From Psammoneis japonica (taxonomy: Eukaryota), in NCBI GenBank assembly GCA_008632985.1, contig QPGO01000082.1, positions 124,001 through 188,000 of the forward strand: a stretch of DNA of 64,000 nucleotides. The letters run 5' to 3'. The notes under the pieces were generated by a model. That model was not told the origin of the DNA. It was given only the letters and a program-made list of their open reading frames with translations, and ran no database searches. Below, piece by piece: positions 28,629-60,609 of this stretch. Position 1 is the stretch's first letter. Every line of letters starts with the position of its first letter. The position numbers were made by a program, and so were the translations under genes.

Positions 28629-29614
28629 ATGTCGAAAAGCGGATACTCAGCAATCGCGGTGCCGGTTGCGTCTGCAACAGAGATGGTGGATGTGGTGGCT
28701 CCTTCAACCTTACAAGCAGGTTTGTTTGCCCAAGCGAGACGGGAGATCTTAGTCGTGTCTCGTCCTTACTTACGAGTATGTTGCCTTGTGCTTTCCGCTG
28801 TGTAGGCTATACATTTCAGGCAGTGTATAACGGCGTAACCTTCCCTGTTACAGTTGTAAGTGTTGTTTTGACTGGTCCCGGTATTTTTTACCGTATGACA
28901 CCGATATTTGTTTGTGTCACTAACTTTCCTTTCGGTACGTTCGTGTAGCCTCCCGGCGGTGTCAAGGAAGGACAGACAATGTCAGTACCCTTTGTTCCCG
29001 ATTCAGGCGAACCCAACGAGAAGACGGCTGTGTTTGGAGATCCAGAAGTGCCGCACGGAGCTTGGAAAGATGGCTTGTTTGATTGCTTCAAGTTTGGTCC
29101 GTGCCATCCTTCTCTTTGGAACGCGTGTTGCTGCCCTCAGATCCTCATGGCTCAGGTATTGACACGTCTGAAAAGGAATTGGCTTGGCGATTCTGCTCCA
29201 GAAGACGAGTGGAGGGCCACGTTTCGGAGAATCTTGACCATGGTGATTTGCTATTGGGTCTTGAGTGTGTTTTTGTCGCCGTCGGGTCCGGATGTGGTTG
29301 TCGACAAAGAAGGCAATGTCACAACCATTCCCGTGGAAACTCCAATCTGGCAGCAAGTGCTTTACAACATTCTGGTGTTCGCCTTTGGGTTGTACACTTT
29401 GATTGTGTTGATGAAGACCCGTCGAGCTGTGAGGGAACGGTATGAGATCCCTCAGACAAAATGCTGGGGCTTTGAGGATATCTGTTGCGCTTTTTGGTGC
29501 GGGTGCTGTACTGTATCTCAGCTTGCTCGTCAGACCGCAAACTATCAGGATCGGAGGGCGGTTTGCTGTTCTGACTCTGGCCTACCCGCCACTGCTCCCG
29601 TCTTTGTAGTTTAA
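28629..29614 (+). CDS. PLAC8-family Cys-rich protein, intact; exons 28629-28719, 28806-28855, 28949-29614
   Basis: WKDGLFDCF, CCCPQILMAQV, RRAVRERYEIP, EDICCAFWCGCCTVSQLARQT; canonical introns join in frame; normal TA content. Confidence 0.92.
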
Positions 29615-30399
29615 AGTGTTTTGCGAGCTGTACTGTAGATAAACACTCCTCACGTGGACAGAACATTTTCATTCCGGTGTTACCCTGCTTTTCCTATTAC
29701 GGTAGTCTATGGTAACTACTCGACTGCCGGCAGTACCTGCCCTAAAAACTCTAATATCAGTTCTAAACTTTAGCTAAACTGCTCGCTTGGAAGTTTCTGT
29801 CCATGAGAAAGTATTGCGAGCGCGAACGTCTTAAAACTAGATCTCCTACTAAAAGTTATCCATCTCTCTCAAAGTCGTTGGGGCTCTTCCTCCACACTAG
29901 CTATGTGGAAAGGGGCTTGTAGAAATTACAACTATCTCTCCAGAGATACGTCACTCTACAATCTAGAGCTAGAGAGAAGAGAGCTACGCTACCCCTGTGT
30001 CTATGACGCTTGCGATACCTCTTGCACATACGACGCTATTACTCTCTAGCTACAGTAGCTAGCTGCTACTCTATCTAGCTACTAGCTAGTAGAGGGCCAG
30101 CAGTAGAGGGCCTGCATGTCGGCAGACCTTGGAAGCAGCGATGATTCGTTCATCGCATCATCGATCAGAACACGAAAATAGGAAGAAGAGGGGGGAGGGG
30201 GGCGAAGTGACCTCGTTGCTGCTGCAACAACGAAACAACAAAGTGGGGAAGAAGAGAGGCGAAGAATGCTGCAAGGGAAGAAGTGAGTCCAAGATGCGAT
30301 GCGATGCGTTGCTGCTTTTTTCATGGCGTTGCACAGAGGAGGACACCATCACAGCCCATCGCTCATTAAAAGATGCAAAGGTTGATTTTATTTGGGCAG

Positions 30400-36430: not shown

Positions 36431-36479
36431 TGGACCCAATGGTCAAGGCAGTGTGGAGGAAGGACTGGGGTTTTGCTGG

Positions 36480-39230: not shown

Positions 39231-39251
39231 TCTCGCGTCGAAAAAGGGCGG

Positions 39252-39701
39252 GTGCAATGTGCAGCCACCAGTGAGAGTCAATGCATCACGGCGACGTGTT
39301 GCAGCCTTTAAATGTCACAAAGGGCGTGACAAAAACAACCTTTTGTCTGCATGCACACTGCACTGTGAATTCACAGCGGAGTGGTTCATCGCAACCATTG
39401 GGCAGGAGGCCAGGGGTTCGAAACCCTGAGTGGGAGTTGTCTGCAGCAACGTTGATCACTGTCGAACGCGTCGAAACTCTGTGCAGTTCTGCACGTTCCT
39501 TCGTGCGCACCCACACTGTTCTGCCAAAACCGTGCAGTGTCAGTGCACGTTGGCAAAGAGCCGCATGGACGCGTGACACATGGGGAGGAGTGCAATGTGC
39601 AGCTGCTGGTGAGAGTTGATGTGTCACGGCGACGTGTTGCAGCCTTTAAATGTCACAAAGGGCGCGACAAAAACAACCTTTTGTCTGCATGCACACTGCA
39701 C
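39252..39701. repeat. 112-bp direct repeat pair (39252-39363 and 39590-39701)
   Basis: gtgcaatgtgcagc...cacggcgacgtgttgcagcctttaaatgtcacaaaggg...cacactgcac twice. Confidence 0.9.
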
Positions 39702-39850
39702 GGGAAAATTGAACTTGAAGTTTACAATGTCAGGTCTGTGTTTCTCAGTTCTGAATTCTCCCGTTCCACAATGCAATTCTTGACTCCTGCTTTAACGTTT
39801 GCTTCTAATCCAAGCTTTGCACTTTGCACACCCGAAACACATTCGAACCA

Positions 39851-40625
39851 TGATGAAAGACGAAGCCGAAGATGGATCACTGCGCACAGTGGAGCAGCTG
39901 CAGGAACCTTTGCTGGTTGTGCAGCCAAAACCTCCAGAAGAGGAACTCTGTCAGCGTCGCGCTTCAACTGGAGATCCAAGTTATGTCGAACCTCTTGACA
40001 TTGCAGAACAGGAGCAGGAAGAGAGGAATGGATTGGAGATCCAGAAGTGACGCATGGATCCTGGAAAGATGGCTTGTTTGATTGCTTCAAGTTTGGTCCG
40101 TGCCATCCTTCTCTTTGGAACGCGTGTTGCTGCCCTCAGATCCTCATGGCTCAGGTGTTGACACGTCTGAAAAGGAATTGGCTTGGCGATTCTGCTCCAG
40201 AAGACGAGTGGAGGGCCACGTTTCGGAGAATCTTGACCATGGTGATTTGCCATTGGGTCTTGAGTGTGTTTTTGTTGCCATCGGGTCCGGATGTGGTTGT
40301 CGACAAAGAAGGCAATGTCACAACCATTCCCGTGGAAACTCCAACCTGGCAGCAAGTGCTTTGCAACATTCTGGTGTTCGCCTTTGGATTGTGCACTTTG
40401 ATTGTGTTGATGAAGACCTGTCGAGCTGTGGGGGAATGGCATGAGATCCCTCAGACAAAATGCTGGGGCTTTGAGGACATCTGTTGTGCTTTTTGGTGCG
40501 GGTGCTGTGCTGTTTCCCAGCTTGCTCGTCAGACCGCAAACTGTCAGGATCGGAGGGCGGTTTGCTGTTCTGACTCAGGCCTGCCTGCCACTGCTCCCGT
40601 CTTTGAAGTTTGGAGTGTTTTGTGA
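39851..40625 (+). pseudogene. Hypermutated, chimeric PLAC8-family pseudogene (duplicate of 29034-29614 plus 3' flank)
   Basis: Colinear with the intact copy at offset +10999; all Tyr>Cys/His; stop TAA>TGG; unrelated 5' part is out of frame. Confidence 0.92.
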
Positions 40626-41790
40626 GCTGCATTGCAGACAAACACTCCTGGCATGGACAGCACAATGTCATTCTGGTGTTGCCATGCTTTTCCCATTGCG
40701 GCAGTCCATGGCAACTGCTCGAGCAAGTGATGCCAATCATCCTCCTCGTCCAGGGTGGACTCAACATGTCAGCTGCCGGCAGTGTTCTGAAATCAATGCT
40801 TGCCACCTGCACCAAAAGCTCTGCCATTGGTTCTGCTCTTTAGCCAAACTGATTGCTGGGAAGTGCCTGTCCATGAGAAAGCATTGCGAGCGCAAACGTC
40901 GTAAACTGGATCTCCCACTACAAACCAGCCATCTCTCTCAAAGTCATTGGGGCTCTTCCTCCACACTGGCTGTGTGGAAGGGGACTTGTGGAAATTGCAA
41001 CTGCTGCATCTCTCCAGAGATGCATCACTCTACAATCTAGAGCCAGAGAGAAGAGAGCCAATCTGTGTGCCCCTGTCTGTCACGCTTGCGATGCCTTTTG
41101 CACAGAAGACGCTGCCAGCACTGTGACACCGGTGTGAACAGCCAATCGTGTGGTGGCTTGTGGCTTGCAGTGTGGTCTGATGTGCGAGTTGCAAGTGGTG
41201 TCAAGGAGTTCACATGCAATGTCACCTCTCTGCTCTCTCTCCAGTGGAGCAGAGAGCAGAGCTGGCTCTCTAGAGAGAGGGCCCTCTCTACTCTAGAGCT
41301 CTAGCTGCCAGCCAGAGTGTGTGTTGTGCACTGTGCACCGGTGGAGAGTGGTGACGAGTTGCGACGTGTTGGTCATTCGGTCAGCGAGCAGACCTTGGTA
41401 GCATCGATTGATCGATCGATCACTTGGACCAACTTTTTTCGATTGATTGGTCAGGGGGACCGCCGACCTGTTTTTTCCGCGTTTGTCCTAAAATGACACC
41501 GGCTGTCCAGCAGTTCCTCCCAGCCAGATAGAAGAAGAAGAGAAAAGGAAAAGGAAGGAAAAAATGAACATTGATGGAGGTTTGAAAGGGTGCGCTGCAG
41601 CACCGCAGTGCGCACAGCAGTGAAGACGGACAGACAGGTGCAGACGCGCCACGTCCTGATGCGTTGGGCACGTGGAATTTGGTGCGAAGTGTCACACGTT
41701 TACGTGCGCAGAAGGATGTGGATCGCCAACGGCTGGAACAAAGCAGCACACCACACAGCAGTCAGTGCAGCTCTGTCATCACGGCGCTAG

Positions 41791-42607
41791 AATGGCGGAG
41801 GACAACATCGTTGCGTCTGGCAAAGCAGAGGATGCAGCAGCTCCGGAAGTCATGGCAGAACTCACGGGCGCCGAAGGCGCGGCGGCAGCTGCCATGACTG
41901 CACTTGGCGCCGAGGGAAGTGCCGAGGGTGTGTCCGTTGAGTCCGAATGCACAAGGATGTCGGAGAAGCCGGCGCAGTCCCAAACTGAAAAGAGGGAGAA
42001 AGCCGTGCCGCCGGAGCCAACCTTTCAAATTTGTGGTTGGAATGAAGCACAGCAGCTGGGTTGCACCGCCAAGCAGCTCCTCAAGGCCGGTTGCAAGATC
42101 GAGTTGGTGGGTGATCAGGCCACCTTTGTGAAACCGGAGGTCCTGCCTTTTTGCAGCAGCAAAAGCGAGGAGGCAGCCAAGCCCGCGGCCAAAGCGGTCG
42201 CGAAAGCAACGGCGGAAGAGGAAGAAGAAGGAAAGCAATTTCCGGACCCCAACGAGCCGTCATTCGACTTGTGGGACTGGGTGTTGCGGCACGAAAAATC
42301 CGATAATTTCCAGGAGTCCATGTGCCTGATGAAGGATGTGCCGAATGATCCCGACCTCTGGTTCCCCGCGCTGGGAGAACTGGGGTGCATCAGGAGCGAC
42401 CCTGAAGCCGTCGCGAATGCTCACGGTGAACACTGCAAGTGGGTGTGGAGGTGCCGCACAGAAGTCGGCGAGAGGGGCATCCCAGACTCGACACCGAAGA
42501 GCAACAAAGTGTTCAAGACCGCCGTCGAGGCTTTCGAAGCGGGGTGGTCACTCGCACTGGTCCACCTCGTGAAGAGAGTAAGTGCAGAAGTGTGCACATT
42601 TGGATGA
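41791..42607 (+). pseudogene. Eroded ORF of unknown function (possibly an upstream exon of the SET gene; GTAAGT donor-like site at 42578)
   Basis: Coding-like Ala/Glu-rich ORF starting MAEDNIVASG; no Tyr. Confidence 0.5.
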
Positions 42608-42664
42608 GGTGCCGTGTCACTTCAACCTGTGTTGTTTTGCCTCGAAAAGTCCGTTCACTCCGCA

Positions 42665-43252
42665 GGCCCCAAGGAGGTGGAGGTGGGCGAGCTACGCGCA
42701 TCGCAACAGAGGGGCGCAGGCATTGGTTTTTTTGCTTTGCGCCAGTTCCAGAAAGGCAGCACAGTTGGAATCTACGTGGGCCCCAGGGTGCCCGGTGCGA
42801 CGAGGAGCTGCTCGTGGTACGACCACGACAGCAAGTTTGGAGAAGACCACAGCATGTGCCACTCCACCATCCGTGACAGCGAGGGCCACTGCGTCACAGT
42901 GGAGCCAAAACCGCTTGATTTTAGCGGTCCAGGGAACAAGAATTCCCATCCACTCTACCTCGGAATGCACTGCGTGAACGATGCCACCGAGTCGTTCAAG
43001 GACAAGAAGAAGATCAAGGCAAGCCAACACGCGGACAACAACTGCGAGTTCTACAATGACGGGTGCTTGGCAGTCACGAAGCGAATCATGCCCGGGGAGG
43101 AATTTCTCTCCAGATGCAACTTGGACGAATCGGAGAAGAAGAAGAAGAAGAGGAAGGCGACGTCGGGTGCCATGAATCGGAAGAAGAAATCGCGTCTACT
43201 CCCCAAGTCGGGGGGGAGAAGCTCCACGTCTGGCAAAACGTTTGCCGTGTAG
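42665..43252 (+). pseudogene. SET-domain lysine methyltransferase-like
   Basis: GAGIGFFALRQFQKGSTVGIYVG; LGMHCVNDA (RFINH-equivalent); VTKRIMPGEEFLSRCN (GEEL..Y motif, Tyr position is TGC at 43115-43117). Confidence 0.8.
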
Positions 43253-43474
43253 TGTGCTCTGTAAATTAGCAGCACAGTGTGTTGGTGTTTTTCAGCGAAA
43301 CTGTGGCATCAGTTGGAAAGGCGTAGCCCCAGTTGTGGTTCGAAAAATGGGAACGAGGAAGAACAGAAAGTCGGTAAATTTGCGCAAATCTGGCAAATCA
43401 GCAGGTGCCTGCACAGTCGCCTGAGTACAGAAAGTCAGCAAATTTACGCAAATTTAGCAAGTTATTTTGTGCTG

Positions 43475-44944
43475 TCACAGTCGCCTGAGAATGGTCTCTT
43501 CCTCTAGAGAAAGGGGGATTGAATTGTTGTTCTTGCCCACTGCAGCACTCTTCAGGTGGAGAGACACGCAGAAGAACTTGTCGTTTGAGTTTGTCCTGCT
43601 GGAGATGCAGTGGCACTTGGTGGGGTTAAAAATGATGACAACACCAAGCCGGAGTGCAACGGAGATGCCTTCGGCAGGGAAGCAGAAGTGCGCCACAATC
43701 CCATCATTCATGGTGTGGCTGCCGGACGGAGGGACTCCCACCACGGTGACTGCTGACAGGAAGAAGTCCTGGTCCCGATGGGCATTGAGGAAGACATTGC
43801 GCCCAGCCGCCAGAGAGGAGAAAATGCCATCTGACCGTGCCAGGGATTTCCAGTTGTGAAACTTTTTGACACGAGCGACACCCTCAAGGATGGCACAGTC
43901 CACGTGCTCATTGACAAGGTGCTCCATGCGTGAAAGAAGTCTGGTGAGGTGGTGAGTGTGTTGGTCGGCTGTGCCAGGCTGCTTGCAAGAAATTCGAGTG
44001 TCTCTCGTGGCAGCCAGGCCAATCGTGGAATGCTTGCTCCTGTCCGTCTCCATGAAGGTAATGCGTTGTTTGCCATGCACGGTGGACTGGGCGGTGCAGC
44101 ATTCTAGTGCTTCGAGCGCTCGGCACTGAGCAACTAGTTCTGCTGGGTTGGGGGAGCTGAACACCACAGCAGAACGCGGCAGCAGGGTGCAGGTGTTGTC
44201 GCAGCGGCAACCGTCCAAGCCAAAGAAAGGCTTCAGATCGAGCACAGGGTCACAGACGACCAGAGGAGCCAATTCAGCAAAGTCAATGTCAGCAAGACAA
44301 GGTGGTGCAGGCTGAGTGTAGTCGCCGTTGTAAACTGGAGTGCGGTTGGCTACGCAGTGCATGGAGAGACTCTTAGTGACGCACGGTGCGAGTGGAACGA
44401 GGCGAGCAATCTTGGATGTTTTCCCACTGGCGCGGCTGCGGATTCGCCTGCGGCTGCGGTGGGCCTTGCGAAGTGGCGGTTGAGCCCTCAACACGTTCTC
44501 GCATGTCCTGGTGCGCATTGACGATGCGGTGTTCGCAGAGAACGTGTGTGCGAACTTGCTGGCAAATGTTCCGCTGCTTGACACTGTCACTGTCGTCTCA
44601 ACAGTGCCCAAAGCAGAACTCTGTCGACAGGGACCGGCGGACTCCAGGGGAGTGGGGTCAAAACCCAATCGAGAGATGTGTCTGCTTTCCGTTGCCTCAA
44701 GAGCACCCAAAGCAAAACTCTGTTGACAGGGACCGGCGGACTCCAGGGGAGTGGGGTCGAAACCTAATCGCAAGAAGCATTTGCTTGTTGTCGGGCTGCG
44801 AGCTGCACGTCCCAAACCCCCACACTGTCGAGACCGGCTGTAACTCGATCGCGACAAGTGCTTGTCGTTGGCAGGACGACGCAGCGAGGCACGAGGTAGT
44901 TGCGACATGGTGTGTCTCAATTTGAAATGTGTTTCAAAATGCAA
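43475..44944 (-). pseudogene. 2OG-Fe(II) dioxygenase, TET/JBP-like (core ~43475-44300)
   Basis: FLNAHRDQDF (HxD); FCFPAEGISVALRLGVVIIFNPTKCHCISSR (distal His); CVSLHLK terminal strand. Confidence 0.6.
44598..44770. repeat. Two-copy repeat, 99-bp period (in-frame RLGFDPTPLESAGPC)
   Basis: cccaaagca.aactctgt.gacagggaccggcggactccaggggagtggggtc at 44607 and 44706. Confidence 0.9.
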
Positions 44945-45289
44945 TGACGGAAGTGTTGTCGCGTTGTTTTTGTCTCCGCGGAGGGAGGATCATCCCACGG
45001 CAATCTCAGTGCGAGTTCTCGCGTAGAAGTGCGTCACGTGCCGTGCCAGCTCGTGCATTTGAATTGCACGGACACACAAGTGCGGCAACGATGAGAAGCA
45101 GGCCGAGATTCAAAACAAATTTTATCGCCCAAAGGCGTCTCATTGTTTCAACGCGTCTGCACATCTGTCCAAAATGACTTTGTACGTTGCTCCATGCGCA
45201 GGTAGAGGCAGCACGCCGCGTTTGAAAATTTCGCACGCACAGAGGGCGCGACGGTAATTTTACGCATTCTGCGCACGTCACAGTTTGGT

Positions 45290-46225
45290 TTGGAAATGCG
45301 ATGTCTGGTCGAACCCGCTGCAAGCAAGGTTGATGTTGCCACAAGGTTGGATGCGATGAACCATCATTGCAGAAGTGTTGGGGAGTTTTGTCTTCAAACG
45401 GCTCCGGACTCCGCGTTCCAGAGCAGGCGTGTCTCCGGAGACGGAAGCGGATCTTCGCACGGCGGCGAAGTTGGCTTCGCTTTGAGCAGCGAAGTGTTTT
45501 TGAACGAACGCCTTCTTGGCGTGAATCACACCTGCGATGCATCTGTCGACATGGGCGGGGGAGTTGCCGGACCCAGCATCGGGCTCAAGTTACTTCGTCG
45601 CCGTTGCACCGTGGTGAGCATCGAGGCCGACCACGATCATCACCAAGAGGCTGTGCGTTGGGCTCATCGTGCTGGCCTTCGCTCGAACGGCGGGTTGGAG
45701 TTGATCAACAAGTCATTCTTGGACAAGAGGCTGGCTCCTTTGTGGAAAAAGAAAGGACTCAAGGTGTTCTTCAACAACTGCAACTCCCGCATGGTCGACG
45801 ACAAGAACACACAGCAGAAGGCAGAGGCGATGCTTTCGAAGTTGTGTCGTGCTGGGACCGTGGTGGTGGCGCTAGATCCGCTGTTCGCGTCGCACGCGGC
45901 AGAGTGGATGTGCGAGTCCTTCACGGCGGATTGCCATGATGGCGACTTTTTGTGGCACAGCGGAGACGTGAAACATCTCGTCTTCCACAAGTGCACCAAG
46001 AAAGAGGAGACTTCTCAGTCAACCAGCCAGCACATGCGACGTCCCACTCCGACACACTTGGAACGGAAGCATTTGCCCGTCGCGAAACAGCCAATTTTGC
46101 TTAAGAACTCAACTGAACTGTTTTTTTACCATCACTGTGCTAGACGTCACACGCTAGTTGCTCCACTCAATTCGCCATTGCTTCGCGGTAATGACAAGTT
46201 GTCGTCGGAGATGGTGCACACTTGA
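45290..46225 (+). pseudogene. Class I SAM-dependent methyltransferase, DOT1-like
   Basis: SHGGE, DMGGGVAG, VSIE, KSFL, VFFNNC and AGTVVVALDPLF appear in the same order as DOT1 YGE/DLGSGVG/GVE/GDFL/FVNNF/GxRIVSxxPF. Confidence 0.6.
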
Positions 46226-46312
46226 AGAGACAGAGGAAAGCTGAGTTGTAATCGACACTTGGTTTGCCAAACATTTACAAATTTACACTGCACCGGCAAA
46301 AAAAAAAACAAC

Positions 46313-47050
46313 TCAGTCTTCATCGCTGTCCTGAAGCACCAAGTCGTCATCGACGTTCAGGTCAACTTCGCAGTTGAGCTCGACATCATTGTCGGCCTCT
46401 TCTCCAGCTTCTTCTGCCGGAGCTCCAATGAGACGACAGAGTTCCACAGGCAACGACCCCTCGTAGAAGTGGCTGTGAAGCAAGTTCTTGTTTTGGGCAC
46501 ACCAACCGATGTGAAACTGACCACCTTCCTTCTGAAGCTCGGCAAGCGCCACCTCGTTGCCAATCACTTCGGACCAAACAGCATCCTTCATCCAGAAGAA
46601 GTCGTCTTCAACGAAGACCTCGGTGTTGTTCTCAGGGTCATCGTTGAGCTGCTTCGCAATGCACTTCCCGAGGCCGCGCACTTTGGCATCGGTTGGGACT
46701 TCTTCGAGGAAGATGAAGAAGAGACGCACGGCGCAGTTCTTGGTGTTCGTCTGCAACTCGCCTTCGTGAACCCACCTGCCAGCGCAAGGGTGGAATCTGA
46801 CTTGAACCGCCCACGGAGTCCTGCTGCGAAGGTTGTCAAACAGAACCTTCTCCGACCAAACATTGGCCAAAAGGGGATTCTTGGCTTGGAGACAAAAAAC
46901 GACGCCTTTCTTGCGGCCGACAGTGACGGTGGCGCAGCGCAGGAGGGCGTCCTTGTCGGAATGGCTGCCATCGTCAGAACCGGCGGATTTGGAAAGCTTG
47001 AACCCATGCTTGGCAAGGCAGTCTTCCGGTTTAAGGTCGTCGTCGGTCAA
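46313..47050 (-). pseudogene. Eroded ORF of unknown function (cargo); 5' part probably continues to ~47300 in another frame
   Basis: 245-aa coding-like ORF with acidic tail; nearly Tyr-free. Confidence 0.55.
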
Positions 47051-47729
47051 GCCGTTGGTCTTGCGGGCGGACTTAGTTTCTTCAACAGAGCATCAGAAAA
47101 CTTCGTCTTTGCCTTCTTCTGTTTGGTTTTGGCGACTTTGGCTTTCGCAGCCCGGGGAGGTCGTTGTGTTTCTTTTGCATGCCATCGAATCAGTCGGAGA
47201 GAAATTGTGGGAACAAAAAGTGCGATCGTTCAGAAGTGCCAAGAAAGACCCAGCAGAGCTGCGTGCATCATGCCAAGGAGAACTGGCAACATCAGCAACT
47301 AGATCCAAACACGTCGAACTGCAACAAGGTGACCTTCCAGGTGTCAGCACTTGCAAGTGGTGCATGGATTCAATTTGAACAAAACAGACACAAGGATCGG
47401 AGCACGCAAAGTCGCACCAAGTTTGCTGAAAATGCGTAAAATCACGTGCAATTCCGTCCGTGCTTCATGTGTGTTTCAGCCGTTGCTGCCGCGCGGCCAT
47501 CGCGCACGAAATCTAGTCGCCAAACGGTCGACGCCATCGCTGTCACTGCTGTGCCGGTGGTTGGCTAAGGTGGGCCCATCACCCATTTGGATGATTCGCG
47601 CGCACTTTGGAAACACGAATGACGTCAATCGCACTGTCATTGCCACATGACTGACTCAACTGCCCCGCCACTCGTTAAAGCGTGATTCTGCGGAATTTGC
47701 GTGAAGCTGCGCCCACCACCAAGATTGCC

Positions 47730-47831
47730 GAAACAACTTGAACAAGATCCGAATCTTGCCCCATGGAATGTTCAGAGCAGATGGTCGAAACAACTTGAAC
47801 AAGATCCAAATCTCATCCCATGGGATGTTCA
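47730..47831. repeat. Two-copy repeat, 57-bp period
   Basis: gaaacaacttgaacaagatcc.aatct...cccatgg.atgttca twice. Confidence 0.85.
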
Positions 47832-47984
47832 ACGTCGACGAAACTAAGTGGGACATCGCACGTCTGGTGCAAAGAAGGATGTGGGAGGAACGCACACGTC
47901 ACTCTTCCGTCGAGGTGAAAGAGGCACACTTTCGTCTCACTTTTTTGTGACAGAACCTTTGCGCAAAGGGAAACGAAAAGCATC

Positions 47985-48680
47985 CAACTGCGGTGATTGG
48001 GCCACACCAATCGCAGTTCTCAGTTCTCACAGTGACCTGGTGACGCAGGTTGTGAGATGACGCACAAGCTCAGCTGCGGTGACTGGACGACACCAGTCGC
48101 AGCTCTCACAGAGACCTGATCGCACAGGTTGTGAGAACACGACACAATGCTGCGGTGATCGGACAGCACCAATGCAGTTCGTCAAGCAACTACTCACTTG
48201 GCTGTGGTGACTGGACGACACCAGTTGCAGCTCTCACAGCGACCTGATTGCACAGGTTGTGAGCAAACAACACAGTGCTGCACCTCGTAACGCAGGTTGT
48301 GAGATGATGCACAAGCTCAGCTGCGGTGACTGGACGACACCAGTCGCAGTTCTCACAGAGACCTGATCGCACAGGTTGTGAGAACACGACACAACGCTGC
48401 GGTGATCGGGTGGCACCGACGCAGTTCGTCAAGCAACCAACCAACTCGGCTGCGGTGACTGGACAGCACCAGTCGCAGCACTCACAGCGACCTGATTGCA
48501 CAGGTTGTGAGAAGACGACACAGCGCTGCGGTGAACGGACAGCACCGACGCGGTTCGTTGATCAACTGGACAGAACCACTGCGGTGACTGGACGACACCA
48601 GTCGCAGTGCCACAGGTGGTGAGAAAACACACATCGCTGTGGTGATTGGATGGCACCGATCGCAGCTTCACGGTGATCGC
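47985..48680. repeat. Complex minisatellite of alternating hairpin units upstream of Rep-helicase
   Basis: Units ctgcggtgactggacgacaccagtcgcag and ctcacagagacctgatcgcacaggttgtgag; higher-order period ~247 bp. Confidence 0.9.
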
Positions 48681-48752
48681 ACTGAAAAAACAACTGTTTT
48701 TGCTGAGCAACTTCTTGAAATTTGTTGAGTTGAAGCATCAGCTTAAATTAAA

Positions 48753-51700
48753 ATGGACGAGGCCAACTCCCGTGTTTGTGGTGCAATCAACAGAAAGTTT
48801 GAGATGCTTTGTCTGCATGGAGACGGAGAATTTAGACCACACGTGTGTCCAGTCTGTGATGTTCTGCTGAAACCTAGAGAAGTTTGCCACTTGCCGCTCG
48901 AAACATTGGAATCAGCAAGAAACTTGCTCACCCCTTCAGACTGGAACAGCGCATCTGATCGTCTCAAGTCCTGCTGCGCTGTGGAGCATGAAGATGCTGA
49001 TTGGATCAAAGACCTGCTGCTTTCTCCCCAGCCCAATGCGCAGTGCAGGAAGACAGACGACACGTCGACGGATTCACTTGCTGCAGCGAATGCCGAAGAA
49101 GCCTGGGAAGAGCCGTTGCGCCAATGTGCGCGACAGCGAACAACTGCTGTTTCGGTGCCCCGCCGCACGAACTGTTGTCTCTGACCGAAGTAGAACCAGC
49201 AATGCTCACACCAGTGAAAACACACGGGTGCTGCTTCAGTCACCTGGCGGCAAACAGAAGAAGCTTCAGGGAAGTCTGACGTGCTACAAAGTCAAGATGC
49301 AAAGCATCGCAAGAACTGTTGTGCACTTCGACGTGCTGAATTTACATCAGAATGTGATCACACTGATGACTGGAAAGATGACTCCGGAGCGAAGACAACT
49401 TGTGCGTTCAAAGAACAGAATTAGGACGCACTGCATGCTGAGGGCAATGGAATGGCTGTTGCACCACAACCAAGAGTGGGTGCACCAACAGACAAATCTA
49501 GACGAAGTTGGGCGTAATCTGCGGAATCCCGCACTTGTCGACAGCACCAGCAAAGAAGAAGGAGAAAATGCGAACATTGAGACCTCAGAGTCATTTCATG
49601 TTTACTTTCCTGATGGAACCATGTCTCCTGCGACCGGTGGTCAGTGCAACCTGGACTGCTTCAAAGATCTTGTGCACGAAGCTGCTGCCAATGGATTTGA
49701 TTTGGAGGTGCAAGCACAGTTGTCCAAAGAATCTGCGAGTGATTTCAAAGGCAACAACTTCATTGACGCATGTCTGCTGCAGTTTCCTTTTGGCAGAGGA
49801 GGAATCAATGAGACGAGAATGAAGAAAGACGGAAGTCTTGCAGATGGCACCAACCTTGCACACTGTGCCGACCACTTGGCACGGATTTCCCAGCCTCACT
49901 TCCATGAGCAGCTCTTTGTGTTAATGTGCTGCAACTTGACAATGAAGCAAAGGATGCTGCAGAGCGCAGGGTGGAAAGTCAGGGACAAGAATCAGGCTGC
50001 ACAGTTTGCAAACGAACTGACAGTGGATGATGTGGATGGAGCTGTTTGTGATCGCAACTTGGGCGAGAGAAGAGATTGTGGACTTGGGCACCACTTTTTG
50101 CACGCACTCGACATTGTGTCTGCGTCTCTGCCACACAGTGACAAAGCAGCAAAGAAAATGAGGAGAAACGCCGAAACCCACCAGCATCATTTTGGTCAGG
50201 GTGGCATTTTCTTAACCGTCAGTCCGGACGATGCAAATTCGTTTCTTGTGCAACTGCACTCGGGTGTCATCCTGGACCCAAACGAAGACGTGACACAACT
50301 GACGGACGAAATTCTTGCTAGCAGGGCCAAGCAACGTAATGAACTGCGTCCAAAGTTTCCCGGTCTAACAGCCTTTGCATTCGAGTGCTTGTTTGACATT
50401 GCAATGGAAGAGGCAGTGGGTTGGGATCTGAGTGCCAACCAACCAAGAGAAAACTTTAACTTCTGCATTGGCAGGCCAGCCGCATTTTTAGCCGCAGTTG
50501 AGGAGCAGGGACGTCTGACAGCACACGGACACATGCAGATCTGGTTCGCATCGATCAACAATGCAAGAGAGAAACTGCATTCGCCAATGAGACAGATCCG
50601 ACGCGAAGGTGCTGAGCACCTTGCCAACATGGTTCAGAAGATCTGCAGCACGGAATTAATCTGCAGCGAGGACTTCAGCACTGGCGCGTTGCGCGAAGCA
50701 TTCGATCATGACTGCACAGTGCCAAAAATGCATCGCACCTCTCCAAAAGTGGCAGACGACCAACAGCTAAGAAACCTGAGGCACAAAGACGGCCAGCAGT
50801 CAAAGAACGGAATGTTTGCTCATTGTCATCACTGCACCAAGTGCTGGACAAACGTCGAGTTTGTAGAAAGCTTTTTGCAGTCACGACACCGTGCACCTGG
50901 CCTGACTCGCCATCCAGACAACCATGCAAAGCGACTAAAAGCAATGTGTGTGCAACACCAGCGAAGTGGTCCGCAAGGGACAACAGAGGCATGTGTGCCG
51001 GACGCAGCTCACAACCATCACATGCATGTTATGAAGTCGTGTTTTCCCAAATGCGTGGAGTTGCGTAAAATGCATAAAAAAACCCCACACGAGGAACTGG
51101 ACACGCAGTCAAGGAAAAGGAAACGAGAGGAGCTCAAACTGGGTGACTGCCATCACAGGCAACCAGCTGCTTCGTGTCCAAATAATTTGGCAAGGAACGC
51201 AGATGACACTCAGACAAAGTGGTTCAGCTGGGATGGAACTTTTGCGCATCGGCACGTGAAGGAAGTTGTTCCGAAGAGGAGAAAGTGTGATGCTTTTCAA
51301 AACGTGTCGTGCCCTGCAATGAGCAGATCAAAACTGACATGCAACACAAACATTGCTTTGTTGATGCCTGGACCGTCTGCTCAATGCATGATTGAGCACA
51401 TCCTAAAAGACACCCAGAAAGATGACACTGCATCGTACGATGAAGTGCTTCGAACTACAAACAGGACAGCGACGGAATTGCGGAAACACGCATCTGATGC
51501 ATCGGAAGCAATCAGATGTCTCACATGGGGTGCTCACTCGCACAACAAGACGAACATCATTGGACCACCACTTGCGTCTTACACAACAAGGAATGGAAGC
51601 CATTTCATCGAATCTCATTTGACCGCATGGTGCCCCTTGAAAGACATTGTCAGCACACTAGAAAGAGATGAAGTGTCTGCGACTGCAGCCCATTTTGGCG

Positions 51701-54480
51701 ACACACCGTTCTTCCAATGCCAGGCCTTGCACCACCTGTGTCGTCCAACAGCACTGGAGAATCTCAGTCCATTTGCGTTTTTTAGTGAATGCAAAGTTCT
51801 TTGCAACACAAGGAAAAACGAACACGGCATGATGATGTTCGACAACAGAGCGCACAGGCACCCATCTCACAATTCAACGAAGAACAAGTTTCTTCAAGGT
51901 GTCAGACAGCGACAGCAACCGCGATTGTCAAAAGCACTTCAGTGTGATTTTCCTGATGCAGCCAAGTTTGGCAGTTGCCTTGTGGATCCGCAGCAACCAA
52001 CAACACTGGACAAAGAATTGTGCTGCAAGTTGGCATTGGCCTTGTTTGTGCCTCACAGAACAATGACAGAACTCAAACCAACAACCCATGCATGCCTGCG
52101 TGAATTCCAACTCTCCGCAGCAGCCGGTGTTGTCACAGAGGAAAACTTGAACTTCTTGCAGAACCCACAGGATGCCAAGTCCAACTGCCTTCGTCTCAAA
52201 AGCACATCTGACGATCTGCAAAGAAAGACGGAGCAATTTAGACCTGCTGACGTTGCGTTTGACTGTTGCGAAAGTGACGAGGAAGAAGGTCTTTCAGGTG
52301 CTGTTCAGGGTCAACTGCTGGATGCACTCTTGGAAGAAATGGCAGAGCAGCCAGAAGACGATGACATTGGGTTGAGCGACCAAGCAGTCATTCCTGCGCA
52401 TTTGAGCGGCAAACGTGCAAGACAGAAAGGTTCGCACATGGGTGGTTGCAAATGCTTGGCAGACATGCACACTGACCCACCAAACGAGGAAAGCCAGGTT
52501 GATGAACGACAACTTTTTGAGAATCTAGAGGGCGGCGATGACACCGACGAGGAAGACCAGAATGAAGGAGTGCAACAACACATCCACAGCAGACCTCTGT
52601 CAAGAGACGACATTGTTCGAGTGACACTGACTAGAATGCAAAGAACAAGAAGGTCGTTTGAGGATGCAACAGGTTTGGAAGAACACGTCGATGCACGTCA
52701 AGCAAACGGATCTGCAGCAAGCATCGTAGACTGGGCTAGGAAAGCAAGACTGGATGGGCAACAGCAGCGTGCCTTTGAAATTCTAGCAGGAACCTTTGTG
52801 CTCACTTGCTGCCAAGACACTCTTCAAGACGAGACGTCACGCAATGGACTTGACAGGAGAAATGGCAGACACGAATTCGCAACAAACCTTCGCCGATTGA
52901 AGAAACTCGTGGAAGTGCAAAGACGCAGAACGTTGCAACTTGTGTGTTTTTTACATGGTGCAGGTGGAAGTGGCAAATCAACCACAATGGACCTCGTCGT
53001 GGAATGCGGAAGAGAGCATTGCTCACTCATTGAGCAGCCGTTCACAACAAGCACAATCAGAGTGACTGCACTGACCGGAGTGGCTGCGACTGTTCTCAAA
53101 GGGGACACAATCCACCGAGTTGCATGCCTCATGAGAAGAAAGCAAACAACCGAAGAGCAAATTGAAGCATGGTCAGACACGAGACTTTTGGTGGCAGACG
53201 AGATTTCTTTTGCAAGCAAGAGAGAACTAGAAAAACTCCATGAGAATTCAACAGCATTGAAGAGCGAATTGAGCAAGCCGCACGGTGGTGTCAACATTGT
53301 TTTCGCAGGTGACCTCAGGCAACTAGAACCAGTCGGAAAAGGAGTGAAACCACTGTGCAAAGATGTGTGTCCCGAGTTTCACGAGTGGATCAACTGCTGC
53401 ACAGAACTTCGTGGTGCACACAGGTTTAAAGACGATCCATCATGGGGAAAACTGCTTGAGAGATTCCGCACTGGCAAGATTGCAGTTGACGATGTGGAGT
53501 GCATCAACAAACGAGCAGTTCAGAATGAAGATGATCTGCCCAGTGACCTCCGCCATGCCACGCACGCAAATGAGGACAGAGATGCAATTGACACTGGCCC
53601 ATTCGAAAAAAGAGTGGAAACACTGCATGGAAGAGATGGAGACGTCCTTGACTCAATGTTGATTTTCAGTGACGACTTGCAGGTGCAGAATGGCACGAGA
53701 CTCTGCCAACCATTTCCGGTTTGCAACAGCTTCTGGAACAACTGTGGTGAAGGAGACGTCATCATGCAATCAGGAAGAATGGATCCAGTCTTACGAATTT
53801 ACAGAAGATGCAGAGTCATGACACCTTTCAACGAAAATGCAGCAAACGGTCAAGCAAACGGAACGCAAGCCACTGTTGATGAGGTCGTTCTCAAACCAGG
53901 ACAGGAACCAAGACTGGCAACTTTAGACAACAACATTGGCATTCCTGCTGCACTTGCCAGTCAGGTAGACCACGTTGCATTGGAACACTGCAACAAAAGC
54001 ATCGACCCCGCGAAGTTTTTAGTTGAGCCAAAAACAAATGCTTTCAGGGCTTGCATCGCCAAGCCCAGCCTAATTTTAGAAGGCGACAAACAAAGGCACA
54101 CTTTCCAACTGAAGGCAACCCAGCTGCCGTTTGTCATCAACAATGCCACTGCAGGGCACAAACTGCAAGGGAGTGGAGTCCCGCAGTTGTTTGCACACTG
54201 TTGGAGCTGCACTCAGAATTGGGTGCATGTTGTGCTCTCCAGAGCAAAGACCAGAGAAGGGCTGTTCATGCGAAAGCCACTGAGCAAGGACCTGCAAAAA
54301 TGCAAGGTCCCAGAAGGCTGCAAAGCCTTGATGAGACTCATGAAGGAGAGAAGCGCCACGCATTTTTCTCAGCAACAGTGCGCAGAAATGTCAATGCAGT
54401 GCGCAAACACCAGATTGGGATGCTCAACCACTGTGCAACCACTTGGCGACCCCAACTGTAAAAATGCAGAAATTTCGTAA
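48753..54480 (+). pseudogene. Helitron Rep (HUH)-Pif1 helicase; frameshift/deletion near 49.0-49.2 kb, then a long open frame
   Basis: IFLTVSPDD, VEEQGRLTAHGHMQIW (HUH), QCMIEHILK (eroded YxxxY), HGAGGSGKST, LLVADEISF, FAGDLRQLEPV, HRFKDD, ATAGHKLQG, HVVLSRAKT. Confidence 0.93.
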
Positions 54481-54615
54481 AATGAAATGTTTCGATTAGA
54501 TCAGCACATTGCGCAGAAATCCACACATGCGCCACACAACGTCGAATGGATTTTAACCAACAAACCAAGAAACGCGAACGCAGCCGTCACAGAAAACGTA
54601 GCAACAGAGAAAACA

Positions 54616-55016
54616 TGGATTTGCAACAACAAACAAAGAAGGCAGATGAGCCAAAGAAAACTGGTGAGGACAAGAAAAAGGTGCAGACACGTGCAGAACT
54701 TCTGCAGTCATTGATGAATGAGGAAGACGAAGAGGAGATCACCTTGGAAGAAGCAAGAGCGGCGTTTGACCTTGCCTCGGGAAATTTTGATGTCACTTCT
54801 GCACTTGTGCAAGACAACACAACAGCGGACAGCCATCATGTGGAAACAACGGTCGTGCCCAAGGATGATTCAACCATGGAGGAGCTAAAGGCAGCACACG
54901 CAGCGGCGATTCCACAGCGGTCGGGGAGATTTTTCACCGAGGAGGAGATGGCGGAGCAGGAGAAAGAGCAAGCAAAGTCCCTTCAGAAGAAGCATGGCCA
55001 GAAACAATGGAATTGA
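54616..55016 (+). pseudogene. Short acidic/coiled-coil ORF downstream of RepHel
   Basis: MDLQQQTKK...EEDEEEITLEEARAAF; coding-like composition only. Confidence 0.35.
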
Positions 55017-56853
55017 GCAAGTCACAAATGACTGTTTGGCAAAGACAACCGCATCAACACGCAAAATGCACGCACATGGACTTTCACTTGAGCCGCCGCG
55101 GATTGAGCATGGCCACAAACAAGGACTGGCCATTTGGCAAAGAAGCTGCAACAATGCGCAAATTCGCACATTTCCACACTCACTCAATCCAACGCAGCTT
55201 GCCTTGGACAACATCAACGTGCACAACTAGACAACATCAACATGCACAGACAGCCTCATGAAACCTCACAGAAGACAGAACGGTCAGAAGCAAAACAACC
55301 AGCACCACGCACCAATGCACGTTGGTCATGTCGCGTGGGTCGCGCAAAAGTGCACACCGAAATGACCGTCATGTGTCACAATTAATTCGAATGCCCGGCG
55401 CAAAATGCAGCAAAATGACTGGTGCAGGCAATCGTCATGGCTCCATTTTCTGACAGTGGCGAGGGCGGCAATCCAAAATCTTTCGGCTTCAGACTTCGAT
55501 CTAGAGAGTTCCACCTGAAAGAGGAGGAACCAATTGGCAATGTGTTTGAGTGCGTTTGTTTATAATTATTAATTTTAAACACAAGAATTGTTCGATCGCC
55601 CACGAAAACGAGAACATCAGGCACCGCGATCGAAGCACGACGATGACGGCAATTGCGCTGTCTCTCAAAATTGGCCCAGTGGCACGAGGGACGAAAGCAC
55701 ACAAATCAATCTGCACTGTGTGACGATAATAAAACCAATGAGTGTCCCTCGTGAGGTGACACTTTGCAACTCACCGCTCGTCGCGAACATCATCATTGTC
55801 GCTCGTGCTTTTGTCGTGTTATTTTCTGTCGCGACCCGTCAAAAACGCGTAAAAACCCGGAAAAGACGTGCGAAAAAAATAAGCCGACGGCCCGCCTTAA
55901 AAAGTGGGCCGGTGATCTGACGTTATTTCCTCGGCATCTTTCATTGGATAAGAATATCGCACGTGCGTTCGTTTCTTTTCGTGAGACACTTCTGTCATTG
56001 CGCTTGTTGTTCTTTCTGCTCCGCTCACACAAGAAACACGCCAACATCACATCATCGGCAAAGACAACGACTGGAGCTCACAATACGCAGATAACAAACG
56101 CACCCTTATCGAAAAGCGGCTTGAATTGCACGCTTAGCCAATACGGTTCAACAGCAACAGTAAGAGCGAAACAACAAACATCAAAACGGGACAGAAAAGT
56201 GAGTACCTTTTGGTTGACCTCTCTAATTGTCGGTATTTTGGGCGCTTGGAAGCACCTTATTGCAAACAAACTCCCATTCGTATGTTATGGTCATGTTCTG
56301 AGTTAAAATTGCGTTTCTGGCATTTGCGAATTCATTTCTGGCAAGACTTTACATTGACGACGTGTTTTATCGTGGATGTGTGCGAGCTACGTTGCGCATC
56401 GTGAAGCGTTCTTTTTGTGCGTTTGTGCGCATTTCTGAGCTTTTCGTGGGATACATGAGTAACAAGAACGTGAAAGTCTTCACTTCTGTTGCTGGCGTCT
56501 TCTTCAGGCTGGTCGTTCGTCAAAAGTGCCGTGATCTACGCCATGGTATTGAAAAACTCGGTCTGTGTCGGCGTTGTGTCACATTGACGTCACAGACTTT
56601 CCCTTTTCCGAAGTACGAACGCATTTCGTTCTGTGCGAGAAATTTAGTATTGTTTTTTCTGAAGCCTTGCCCGACGATCGTACTTGGGGGCAATATGTGA
56701 CGGCAGATCTTGTACTGCGCGACGTATTTTATTTAGGGCCTATGATGGTTCACGTTTTACTGCAACAACTCTGTGATTTTGATGGATGGCCACATCATTT
56801 TGCGATCAAATAAACACTCTCCTCACAAGCTCCTCACACTCTTCTCTTCAATA

Positions 56854-59800: not shown

Positions 59801-59878
59801 GAAGTAACGCATCTTCTTCACGTGTGCAAAGAACTACCAGAGCCGTCCAGTCCTATCCATGACTTTCCGGAGTCGTGA
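56854..59878 (+). CDS. bZIP-PAS transcription factor; introns 57952-58040 and 59701-59790; apparent 1-nt deletion near 58638
   Basis: bZIP NRDRNREHARSTRLRKKAYVQKLKELV; PAS ARVITLAKAPYRIVSVNEAFTRITRYTQMEVEGKEMSILNG. Confidence 0.88.
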
Positions 59879-60600: not shown

Positions 60601-60609
60601 CTGGCTGGA

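Follow-up and report, generated by a model that had tools for sequence, protein, structure and literature searches.

A high-copy Helitron-type element of the diatom Psammoneis japonica carrying SET, probable TET/JBP-type and DOT1-like genes upstream of RepHel

Do genes for chromatin- or DNA-modifying enzymes that lie next to a Helitron replication gene belong to the transposon and, if so, might they serve it against silencing by the host? The question is raised by a stretch of 64,000 nucleotides of the genome of Psammoneis japonica (contig QPGO01000082.1, positions 124,001 to 188,000 of the forward strand; assembly GCA_008632985.1), referred to here as the window, all coordinates being positions within it. 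The original prediction placed a giant Helitron-type element with SET, TET/JBP-like and DOT1-like genes at 41418..55917. The ORFs bearing SET, 2OG-Fe(II) and class I methyltransferase motifs, claimed to lie within ~7 kb upstream of a Rep-Pif1 gene, were located at 42608-43252 (+), 43475-44989 (-) and 45206-46225 (+), 2.9-6.4 kb upstream of RepHel.

The RepHel gene (48988..54480, + strand; ORF from 48871/48988) encodes 1,830 amino acids that comprise a zinc-finger-like DUF6570 region, a Rep/HUH domain and a PIF1 helicase domain. Its identity as a Rep-Pif1 gene was established by Pfam matches to Helitron_like_N (PF14214; E 1.2e-9, 39.1 bits against a cut-off of 28.9) and PIF1 (PF05970; E 3.1e-13), together with matches to PIF1 helicases in the PDB (1.3e-10); DUF6570 was matched at E 8.7e-5. 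The Rep part had no match in the PDB search. An H-G-H (HUH-type) motif is readable in the translation, and a C-x-x-x-H downstream of it occupies what we take to be the Y-x-x-x-Y site. The frame is open, yet its Tyr content is 0.3%. In canonical Helitron1 elements, Rep (HUH) and a PIF1-like helicase are likewise joined in one protein (Kapitonov & Jurka 2001; Helraiser, Grabundzija 2016).

The SET-domain gene (41786..43252, + strand) occupies a single frame, with an N-terminal region at 41786-42604 and the SET domain at 42608-43249, the two being split by one in-frame TGA (42605-42607). One of the two ORFs that had been listed as unknown, 41660-42607, turned out to be the N-terminal part of this gene, cut off by the TGA; hhalign matched this half with the N-terminal part of the profile built for the SET family (probability 79.5%, E 1.5e-5). 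The Pfam SET (PF00856) match of the window ORF covered profile positions 1-100 of 105 at a score under the cut-off (E 0.047, 14.6 bits against 22.4). The gene has 71 relatives (best E 8e-18); among the 40 that were scanned, SET was detected by Pfam at E<=0.01 in 22, with 8 above the gathering cut-off. All eight PDB matches of the family profile at E<=0.01 were SET proteins, with KMT2C best at 7.3e-6 and KMT2D, LegAS4, HiPB and EZH2 also included, and the SET assignment was thereby upheld. At the mostly-Tyr columns of the family, the window copy has Cys in three of six; given these replacements and the in-frame TGA, the gene is a pseudogene in this copy, its membership of the SET family by descent being unaffected.

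The second gene (43475..44989, - strand) is 2OG-Fe(II) dioxygenase-like, with a conserved domain at 43478-44347 and a 99-nt tandem repeat at 44607-44786 in its N-terminal part. Homologs in diatom data were P0001 of Seminavis robusta (2e-30) and P0002 (5.6e-22), and one cluster has 62 members. All three dioxygenase sequences compared share H-x-D and the downstream H without variation, and the C-terminal domain is beta-rich; HxD...H occurs throughout the 2OG oxygenases and is not specific to TET/JBP. The proposed TET/JBP-like nature of the gene is favored by its feature matches in the ESM Atlas, 24 of 30 of which fall within the Tet_JBP set, by the Atlas model of residues 300-570 of P0001, the neighbours of which reached TM 0.70-0.73 with PF12851 as the aligned part, and by a weak hhalign match (E 0.0019, probability 14%) to seven phage Tet_JBP proteins that puts the HRD motifs in register. 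Against it, Pfam gave no Tet_JBP match at E<=1 for the window ORF, P0001 or P0002, and nothing was found for the dioxygenase in PHROGs or by a PDB profile search. The AlphaFold model had a pLDDT of just 30.7. Mainly on the one line of the ESM Atlas, with the weak hhalign match beside it, the gene is probably of the TET/JBP type.

A DOT1-like class I SAM methyltransferase gene follows at 45356..46090 (+ strand); its natural stop has been lost, and the ORF continues to 46225. The protein P0003 is 53% identical to its product (E 4e-71). D-x-G-G-G (glycine-rich motif I) is present in all three aligned family sequences, and an invariant F-F-N-N resembles the 'NN' motif of DOT1. The structure model shows an alternating pattern of seven strands, at a pLDDT of just 47.8, and 256 chains scored Z>=8 against it in VIA-align. 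DOT1 clusters accounted for 18 of 30 Atlas matches, at 0.95; the best 36 Foldseek rows were all DOT1L, Dot1p or TbDOT1A (E 3e-6 to 3e-5, TM 0.43-0.50); and Dot1p ranked first in VIA-align (Z 11.9). These rankings speak for the predicted DOT1-like nature, whereas many other methyltransferases lay within 1 Z of Dot1p and Pfam gave no DOT1 (PF08123) match for the window ORF, P0003 or the ORF of L001. The product is a class I methyltransferase, and its assignment as DOT1-like is moderately supported. L001 (34% identity), the only more distant relative with context, lies in a longer ORF with no Helitron within 3.6 kb.

The remaining parts of the element were also surveyed. Long ORFs on both strands fill the stretch 46226..47302 (46226-47302 on the + strand, 46313-47092 on the - strand), which has no family and no Pfam match. 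Tandem repeats upstream of RepHel (47722..48607, + strand) consist of a 57-nt unit present 1.9 times at 47722-47831 and a 129-nt family at 48035-48607, and a charged ORF of 176 amino acids, also without a Pfam match, lies downstream of RepHel (54486..55016, + strand). Stop triplets in the element number 514 for TGA, 86 for TAG and 85 for TAA. Loss of TA removes TAA and TAG stops and thus inflates ORFs in all six frames; genes are therefore to be recognised here by homology and not by the length of an ORF.

Summed depth of public-run contigs was 2188-6403 in all 21 bins of 41670-55676 and 60-85 in the flanks, so that each bin between 41.7 and 55.7 kb stood at ~30-100 times flank depth, with bin means of ~3540 for the cargo and ~4190 for RepHel; summed depth does not equal copy number. 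Contigs matching the element were spread by likeness, with 1551 at >=99%, 1633 at 95-99%, 1656 at 90-95% and 510 at <90%. By k=31 unitig reasoning, the repeat would extend from ~41422 to at least 55900, single-copy X1 unitigs stopping at 41451 and resuming at 55871, limits close to the span originally predicted. Deletion joints from 41491/41492/41494 to 55532/55571/55588 were present in at least five X1 contigs, and X2 record 11 spans 41453-41491 plus 55532-55805. Short non-autonomous derivatives retain only the two extremities, ~70 bp at the 5' side and ~370 bp at the 3' side, that is, the terminal segments 41421..41494 and 55532..55920 (both + strand), the latter with 30 TA/kb and not TA-eroded. 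Because unitigs inside the element do not exceed 418 nt, the linkage between cargo and RepHel rests on the equal depth across bins and on the short derivatives that join 41.49 to 55.53 kb. The cargo genes and RepHel are therefore a single repeated unit (41421..55920, + strand), with boundaries that are approximate by a few bases on the left and within 55800-55920 on the right. With RepHel domains present and short derivatives of a multi-copy unit, the claim of a giant Helitron-type element (~14.5 kb) holds, and in the public-run contigs the cargo ORFs share the high depth of RepHel throughout.

The cargo (41421-48870) and RepHel are equally eroded, as the original prediction stated, with 8.6 TA/kb in each, whereas the window has 42/kb where its composition is normal; CG is near normal in the element despite the loss of TA. 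This TA-only erosion domain with CG kept (38900..55500) continues an older domain (30500-38900) in which both TA and CG have been lost. Erosion is not specific to the element: leftward, it extends past the element as far as 30.5 kb, taking in a host PLAC8 duplicate on the way, and it halts near 55500, ~400 bp inside the 3' end. Given that it covers the neighboring duplicate, it marks a repeat domain rather than the element. Copy B of this gene (39999..41058, + strand; Pfam PLAC8) lies outside the element but within the eroded domain, copy A occupies 28949..29984, and the depth of ~130 corresponds to two copies. The copies differ at 99 of 1002 aligned positions, including 39 transitions where copy A has TA and 14 where copy A has CG, with none in the opposite direction. 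As read from the sequence, the window copy of the element is dead, TG/CA having replaced nearly every TA in a T-A-Y context across the domain. The Tyr content of the four genes is 0-1.9%, tyrosines being replaced by Cys or His, and A>G at T-A-Y cannot make in-frame stops, so that the 1,830-codon RepHel frame is still open. Like RIP of Neurospora, which changes C to T at CpA and creates TA (as summarised in the available text of Kojima 2025, PMC12730594), the pattern is a transition-only hypermutation that is restricted to repeat-rich DNA, strict as to dinucleotide context, and that kills transposon genes; unlike RIP, it destroys TA (A>G at T-A-Y) and raises GC, its target and direction being opposite. 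Also unlike RIP, it mutated only one copy of the two-copy PLAC8 gene, the one lying in the repeat domain, as would be expected of an effect on the domain more than of a process that senses homology.

Host-gene capture is frequent among Helitrons, and the three genes might have been captured by chance and carried without benefit, the chromatin theme reflecting coincidence or annotation bias. The pseudogenisation of all three genes here and a family assignment that is only moderate for two of them fit such passengers, as does the commonness of capture itself. We nevertheless consider this account rather unlikely: the cargo equals RepHel in depth in every bin and so was carried through most of the amplification of the family, the genes are full-length compared with their homologs rather than fragments, and independent transposon lineages with TET/JBP and SET genes are reported in the available text of PMC12730594. 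There, TET/JBP genes are described on fungal Helitron1 (Puccinia graminis, Pezizales) and Helitron2 (Agaricus bisporus), with nine further lineages of DNA transposons also named as carriers. The diatom element resembles these fungal Helitrons, as far as they are described in that text, in combining RepHel with a probable TET/JBP-type 2OG-dioxygenase as internal cargo, in the role proposed for the cargo, namely escape from methylation-based silencing, and in a host with repeat-directed hypermutation or methylation. It differs from them in its diatom (stramenopile) host, in a dioxygenase too divergent for Pfam PF12851, and in the SET and DOT1-like methyltransferase genes that travel along; 'diatom' and 'stramenopil' are absent from the available text of PMC12730594. 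SET genes are carried by oomycete Harbinger (HarbingerS) and MuDR elements (Kojima & Jurka 2014, as cited in the available text of PMC12730594), which are likewise stramenopile DNA transposons with a SET histone-lysine methyltransferase gene; the transposase there is DDE, whereas here it is HUH/helicase, and the relevant passage of PMC12730594 reports a dioxygenase or DOT1-like partner in neither.

The left end of the unit reads A|TC at 41420|41421-22, and the right end shows a GC-rich hairpin at 55888-55911 (8-bp stem, z-score just -1.7) followed by CTGA at 55917-55920, the next base being C, not T. The ends had been described as similar and inverted; when the left end was aligned locally with the reverse-complemented right end, the top score was 21, within the range of 200 shuffles (19.3 +/- 2.3, maximum 28), and terminal inverted repeats are thus not above chance. 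Their absence is expected for a Helitron. Canonical Helitron1 elements have no significant terminal inverted repeat, begin with TC after a host A, carry a GC-rich hairpin shortly before a CTRR-like 3' end, insert between A and T without target site duplication, and have abundant short non-autonomous derivatives. The present element is like them in its Rep and PIF1 fusion, lack of inverted repeats and short derivatives, and in a candidate A|TC start and a candidate hairpin with a CTRR-like end, the termini being taken here from one copy, and unlike them in its 14.5-kb unit, ~7 kb of 5' cargo and the C at the 3' flank.

The boundaries could also be drawn differently, with a mobile block (41492-55531) inserted in an unrelated short repeat, S (~41421-41491 plus 55532-55900), the short joined forms then being empty copies of S rather than deletion derivatives. 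Erosion halts at ~55500, near the 55531 joint, and leaves the tail 55532-55900 uneroded; the same joint occurs in several diverged short forms; and the depth of 862 in bin 41003-41669 fits a start anywhere at ~41420-41490. The ends at 41492/55531, however, show no 5'-TC or 3'-CTRR even with a 3-nt joint ambiguity allowed, whereas the outer ends carry A|TC and the hairpin with CTGA, and no strong loose-end signal was present at 41492 or 55531 among the rows listed. We judge these boundaries unlikely, and even with them the cargo and RepHel would remain one block. A composite, in which a Helitron (~47.3-55.9 kb) and an adjoining element or cluster of genes not related to it (41.4-47.3 kb) were amplified by segmental duplication instead of by RepHel, accommodates the repeat-rich stretch without assigned family at 46.2-48.9 kb, between cargo and RepHel, and the CpG o/e of 0.91 in the cargo versus 0.68 in RepHel, but is very improbable given the uniform depth over both parts, deletion joints that span both at once, and a wide divergence spread of copies as expected for dispersed transposons.

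The interpretation toward which we lean, by a modest degree, is that of a high-copy, autonomous-type Helitron of ~14.5 kb with SET, probable TET/JBP and DOT1-like genes 5' of RepHel, possibly kept against silencing. From established Helitron biology, RepHel would nick the 5' end, unwind in the 5'->3' direction and stop at the 3' hairpin/CTRR signal, and everything between the ends, cargo included, would move as one single-stranded unit. The three enzymes may have been retained for changing how the element is packed into chromatin or how its bases are modified: oxidation of a modified base would fall to the dioxygenase, and the SET and DOT1-like methyltransferases would write histone marks opposing heterochromatin. 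Silencing by the host would thereby be delayed, a role already suggested for TET/JBP genes that ride on DNA transposons of fungi, and the trio may in this way be an anti-silencing module. Against such a role, according to the available part of a recent preprint, H3K79 methylation is not activating in every eukaryote (bioRxiv 10.1101/2025.03.17.643675).

A bolder proposal, which we regard as quite doubtful, is an arms race in which the host hypermutates adenines across whole repeat domains (A>G at 5'-T-A-Y-3'), alongside CpG decay, and the Helitron maintains its cassette of three enzymes specifically as a defence. The dioxygenase would then strip from TA (or CG) sites a modification that singles them out for deamination, and the SET and DOT1-like marks would keep the mutator or heterochromatin machinery away; CcTET, a fungal transposon-related TET, is described in the available text of PMC12730594 as oxidising 6mA as well as 5mC. 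TET/JBP-bearing Helitrons in fungi and SET-bearing transposons in oomycetes are already published, and what is new here is the three-gene combination, including a DOT1-like gene, in a diatom. If the arms race were true, the element would be the first case of a DOT1-type enzyme carried by a transposon and, outside fungi, of an 'anti-RIP' cassette, and its host would possess a so far undescribed repeat-directed adenine hypermutation.

The window is eukaryotic: flanking host genes encode a proteasome ATPase, pirin, rhomboid, PLAC8, a bZIP protein and a CRT-like transporter, and the nearest relatives of the cargo proteins were found in diatom data, which include Seminavis robusta. The RepHel ORF occupies 48988-54480 on the forward strand (1,830 codons; 1,869 codons from stop to stop, beginning at 48871) and matched the Pfam families Helitron_like_N (1.2e-9), PIF1 (3.1e-13) and DUF6570 (8.7e-5) as well as solved PIF1 helicases (1.3e-10), and an H-G-H motif of the HUH type is readable in its translation. 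The Rep part yielded no match in the PDB, and a C-x-x-x-H occupies what we take to be the place of the Rep Y-x-x-x-Y motif. The Helitron_like_N and PIF1 matches together with the HUH-type motif therefore indicate that the Rep-Pif1 gene is real, as had been proposed.

Contigs assembled from the public sequencing runs X1 and X2 were placed on 37001-57000 at a likeness of at least 80%; the runs form one set, which is probably the source sample and so not independent evidence. Summed depth, which is not a copy number, was 60-85 in the unique flanks, about 130 over copy B of a duplicated PLAC8 gene, and 2188-6403 in each of 21 bins across 41670-55676, a uniform 30- to 100-fold contrast with the flanks. 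Mean bin depth was about 3540 for the cargo and about 4190 for RepHel. The single-copy unitigs stop at 41451 and resume at 55871, from which, with k=31, we infer that the repeat spans about 41422 to at least 55900; the feature that the original prediction had placed at 41418-55917 is thus real and its coordinates were essentially right. At least five diverged contigs join 41491-41494 straight to 55532-55588, and one X2 contig consists of 41453-41491 followed by 55532-55805. These short joined forms are, in our reading, non-autonomous deletion derivatives reduced to the termini, of a kind usual in Helitron families. The equal depth of cargo and RepHel across the 21 bins and the joints between 41491-41494 and 55532-55588 support the claim that the cargo lies inside the element. 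The 14-kb block might instead sit inside an unrelated short repeat, which we consider unlikely; whether or not it does, cargo and RepHel are one repeated block. A further joint, from 39309 to 41453, was set aside as unreliable, its shorter side being only 26 letters.

Between copies of this repeated block, nearly all differences are transitions (114 A>G, 118 G>A, 114 C>T and 118 T>C, with at most 8 in each transversion class). The left end of the element reads A|TC. At the right end, a GC-rich hairpin at 55888-55911, whose fold z of -1.7 is not significant, is followed by CTGA, with C as the next base. The proposed similar inverted ends did not hold up, their likeness being at chance level, which fits a Helitron. 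Within the 3' segment, a 61-nt piece at 55593-55653 showed a depth of about 15000 and, with 13 and 17 loose ends, also occurs in other contexts; other repeat families may share it as a motif. Directly after RepHel, an ORF of 176 amino acids at 54486-55016 is rich in lysine and glutamate and contains, by eye, a short UBA-like segment, with no family match. Pfam scans of 55 of the 83 other ORFs of at least 75 amino acids in the element, with those overlapping RepHel left out, returned three sub-threshold chance matches, and no Pfam family was found for the stretch 46226-47302.

By itself, the ORF at 42608-43252 matched Pfam SET at an E value of 0.047, below the cut-off, and its PDB matches were weak PR/SET ones. 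A HMMER search of 1.84 billion representatives returned 71 relatives of the SET gene, the best at 8.3e-18. Of the 40 that were scanned against Pfam, 22 matched almost the full length of the SET profile at E ≤ 0.01, 8 exceeded the gathering score, and 18 had no SET match. A profile built from the window ORF and 29 relatives matched eight PDB sequences at E ≤ 0.01, all eight of them SET enzymes; its PDB matches include KMT2C (7.3e-6), KMT2D, LegAS4 and EZH2. The SET assignment thus has good support from both the Pfam matches of the relatives and the profile matches. The upstream ORF at 41660-42607 has the same frame as the SET ORF, from which a single TGA separates it, and its residues 204-271 match the NH2-terminal region of the SET family profile (probability of 79.5%, E value of 1.5e-5). 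The shared frame and the profile match therefore point to a single SET gene, 41786-43252, whose roughly 490 codons are interrupted by a premature stop; the ORF at 41660-42607, counted in the original prediction among ORFs of unknown function, does not stand as a separate gene and is instead the NH2-terminal part of this one. The read-through SET gene, with X at the stop, retrieved no homolog in the range of 291-928 amino acids when used as a protein query.

The dioxygenase gene (43475-44989, reverse strand) was recognized from its homologs and HxD...H motifs. Its homologs are a Seminavis robusta protein (2e-30) and a 62-member cluster from metagenomes (5.6e-22), and across all three sequences there is no variation in the H-x-D, the downstream H or several flanking motifs. 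With residues 300-570 of the Seminavis homolog as query, 24 of 30 feature hits in the ESM Atlas fell in the PF12851 set (score of 0.96), and its predicted-structure neighbours there had TM values of 0.70-0.73, with PF12851 as the aligned part. In an hhalign comparison with seven phage Tet_JBP proteins, an alignment seeded from Mycobacterium phage Cooper gp2 (Pfam Tet_JBP, 4e-6), the two HRD motifs were in register, at an E value of 0.0019 and a probability of 14%. Family searches in Pfam, in PHROGs and, by sequence or profile, in the PDB returned nothing, and the AlphaFold model was unusable (pLDDT of 30.7). The dioxygenase alignment found no relatives among viral contigs, and tblastn of the Seminavis protein against phages gave only chance tail-fibre matches (E value of 10). 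Resting mainly on the ESM Atlas, the gene is probably of the TET/JBP type, and that it encodes a 2OG/Fe(II) dioxygenase is more probable still. The proposed TET/JBP identity therefore stands at moderate to weak strength, with the PF12851 hits and the HRD register in its favor and the empty Pfam, PHROGs and PDB searches against it.

The DOT1-like gene (45356-46090, forward strand) has one known close relative, P0003 (53% identity, 4e-71), and its class I methyltransferase fold is secure. Neither the gene nor its relatives matched Pfam DOT1. In the ESM Atlas, 18 of 30 hits fell in DOT1 clusters (0.95). The AlphaFold model of P0003 was of low confidence (pLDDT of 47.8, pTM of 0.51), and in a Foldseek search with it all ranks through 36 were DOT1L, Dot1p or TbDOT1A (E values of 3e-6 to 3e-5, TM of 0.43-0.50). 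VIA-align, which is independent of Foldseek, placed yeast Dot1p first (Z of 11.9, rmsd of 3.7, 168 residues aligned) and DOT1L fifth, with many class I methyltransferases no more than 1 Z from them. We regard DOT1-like, with moderate confidence, as the best though not the exclusive reading; the three comparisons favor the assignment made earlier, and the lack of a Pfam DOT1 match and the near-tied methyltransferases weigh against it. A metagenome scan with the DOT1-like alignment found three loci, all representing one 34%-identical gene from a mat metagenome that is fused within an ORF of at least 569 amino acids; the fusion suggests that the family may also exist as a longer, possibly cellular, protein. 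No Helitron was present within 3.6 kb of this gene, a result that does not inform on linkage. In the same metagenomic contig (L001, 1-1710), the second region fused to the DOT1-like domain showed weak methyltransferase-like Pfam matches (MTS, E value of 0.025). A scan of viral contigs with the DOT1-like alignment also returned no relatives.

The window copy lies in sequence depleted of TA. Normal sequence (1-15000, 28000-30500 and 55500-64000) contains about 42 TA and 56 CG per kb; doubly eroded sequence (15000-28000 and 30500-38900) contains 2.8 TA and 4.4 CG per kb, with TG+CA at about 1.9 times expectation; and sequence eroded in TA only (38900-55500) contains 8.1 TA and 53 CG per kb. At nine columns of the DOT1-like gene where homologs have Tyr, the window has five C, one H, one F and two L; at ten such columns of the dioxygenase gene, it has three H, one C and six other residues. 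Tyr is thus retained at none of these positions, and of six family-Tyr columns of the SET gene, three have Cys and two keep Tyr. The duplicated PLAC8 stretches are 28949-29984 and 39999-41058, with the gene at 28949-29611 in copy A, which is intact, and at 39999-40622 in copy B, which lies 11 kb away within the eroded domain. Between the two copies, 99 of 1002 aligned positions differ, including 39 transitions at TA sites of A and 14 at its CG sites, with none in the reverse direction, and copy B has 3 TA versus 46 in A and 29 CG versus 44. The Tyr columns and the PLAC8 copies prove that the direction of change was the destruction of TA. Survival relative to normal density was 0-9% for ATAN and NTAT, 82% for TTAA and 63% for CTAG, a strict context that equates to A>G at 5'-T-A-Y-3' on one strand or the other. 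It is opposite in direction to fungal RIP and raises GC content.

This loss bears on how the ORFs are read. Over six frames, the element has 514 TGA versus 86 TAG and 85 TAA stop codons; since TAA and TAG stops vanish with TA, long ORFs arise in every frame and their length does not argue for a gene. Given that changes of TA to TG or CA cannot create in-frame stops, the open RepHel frame is likewise no sign of a live copy. Tyr makes up 0.3% of RepHel and 0-1.9% of the cargo ORFs; for comparison, PLAC8 copy A has 2.3%, and the five host genes examined in the flanks have 1.6-4.3%. Because PLAC8 copy B is eroded and its partner 11 kb away spared, and because the limit of the erosion lies inside the element, 400 bp inward of its 3' end, the element was not a particular target. 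The erosion that killed the window copy is a property of the repeat domain, and the mutation process, judging from the PLAC8 copies, seems to track the domain rather than sequence duplication. Protection by the element's own TET, considered as an explanation of its normal CpG content, was rejected, in that TA loss simply precedes CG loss in PLAC8 copy B; copies of the element also vary at CpG sites, which account for 6 of the 12 "other letters" listed within it. A search of a limited literature collection, including diatom and RIP-like work, found no description of TA erosion or of TA-destroying hypermutation, a process that to our knowledge is undescribed and that is seen here within one window.

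Other repeats were also apparent. A very high-copy short repeat at 39002-39700 reached a summed depth of 57161, versus about 70 for single-copy sequence, its units lying at about 39262-39491 and from 39600 onward; 39252-39363 is directly repeated at 39590-39701. Inside the doubly eroded block at 15-28 kb, direct repeats at 19918-20246 and 25384-25711, 5.47 kb apart and 75-86% identical, may represent LTRs of an old retrotransposon, in whose ORFs no Pfam domain is left. Upstream of the gene for the CRT-like transporter, DNA of normal composition contains tandem repeats at 60387-60719, where 40/81-nt units are followed by a 26-nt unit rich in CTAG, and CTAG-rich runs adjoin both PLAC8 copies (about 30040-30116 and 41264-41314).

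RepHel proteins mobilize everything between a 5' TC end and a 3' hairpin/CTRR end as single-stranded DNA. If this rolling-circle mode applies to the window element, the 7 kb of cargo would have been amplified along with RepHel. The three cargo genes remained full-length relative to their homologs throughout the family expansion, and such retention of three modifying-enzyme genes suggests a service to the element, most plausibly delayed silencing: the dioxygenase would target a modified base, and histone marks would come from the SET and DOT1-like enzymes. An anti-silencing function is therefore plausible as an interpretation. H3K79 methylation is, according to one preprint, not universally activating (bioRxiv 10.1101/2025.03.17.643675).

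Kojima 2025 (PMC12730594) describes complete fungal transposons of eleven lineages, Helitron1 and Helitron2 among them, with TET/JBP genes inside, proposes escape from methylation-based silencing for such genes, and refers to oomycete Harbinger and MuDR elements that have SET genes. These precedents make the principle already known; the novelty of the window element lies in its host lineage, in the combination of three genes and in its DOT1-like member. A limited literature search found no report of a SET, TET/JBP-like and DOT1-like Helitron cargo in diatoms, no report of a transposon-borne DOT1 and no work on diatom Helitron cargo.

Few transposons have epigenetic enzymes of their own, and those that do are informative: they reveal which host silencing marks matter and provide natural enzymes of unusual specificity. 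A diatom Helitron family with SET, TET/JBP-like and DOT1-like genes would, if confirmed, extend this strategy to a major phytoplankton lineage and add a histone H3K79-type writer to the repertoire. A TA-destroying, transition-only process, if genome-wide, would be a novel form of genome defence or a novel mutational bias, and such a setting would make the question of what the cargo enzymes counteract directly testable.
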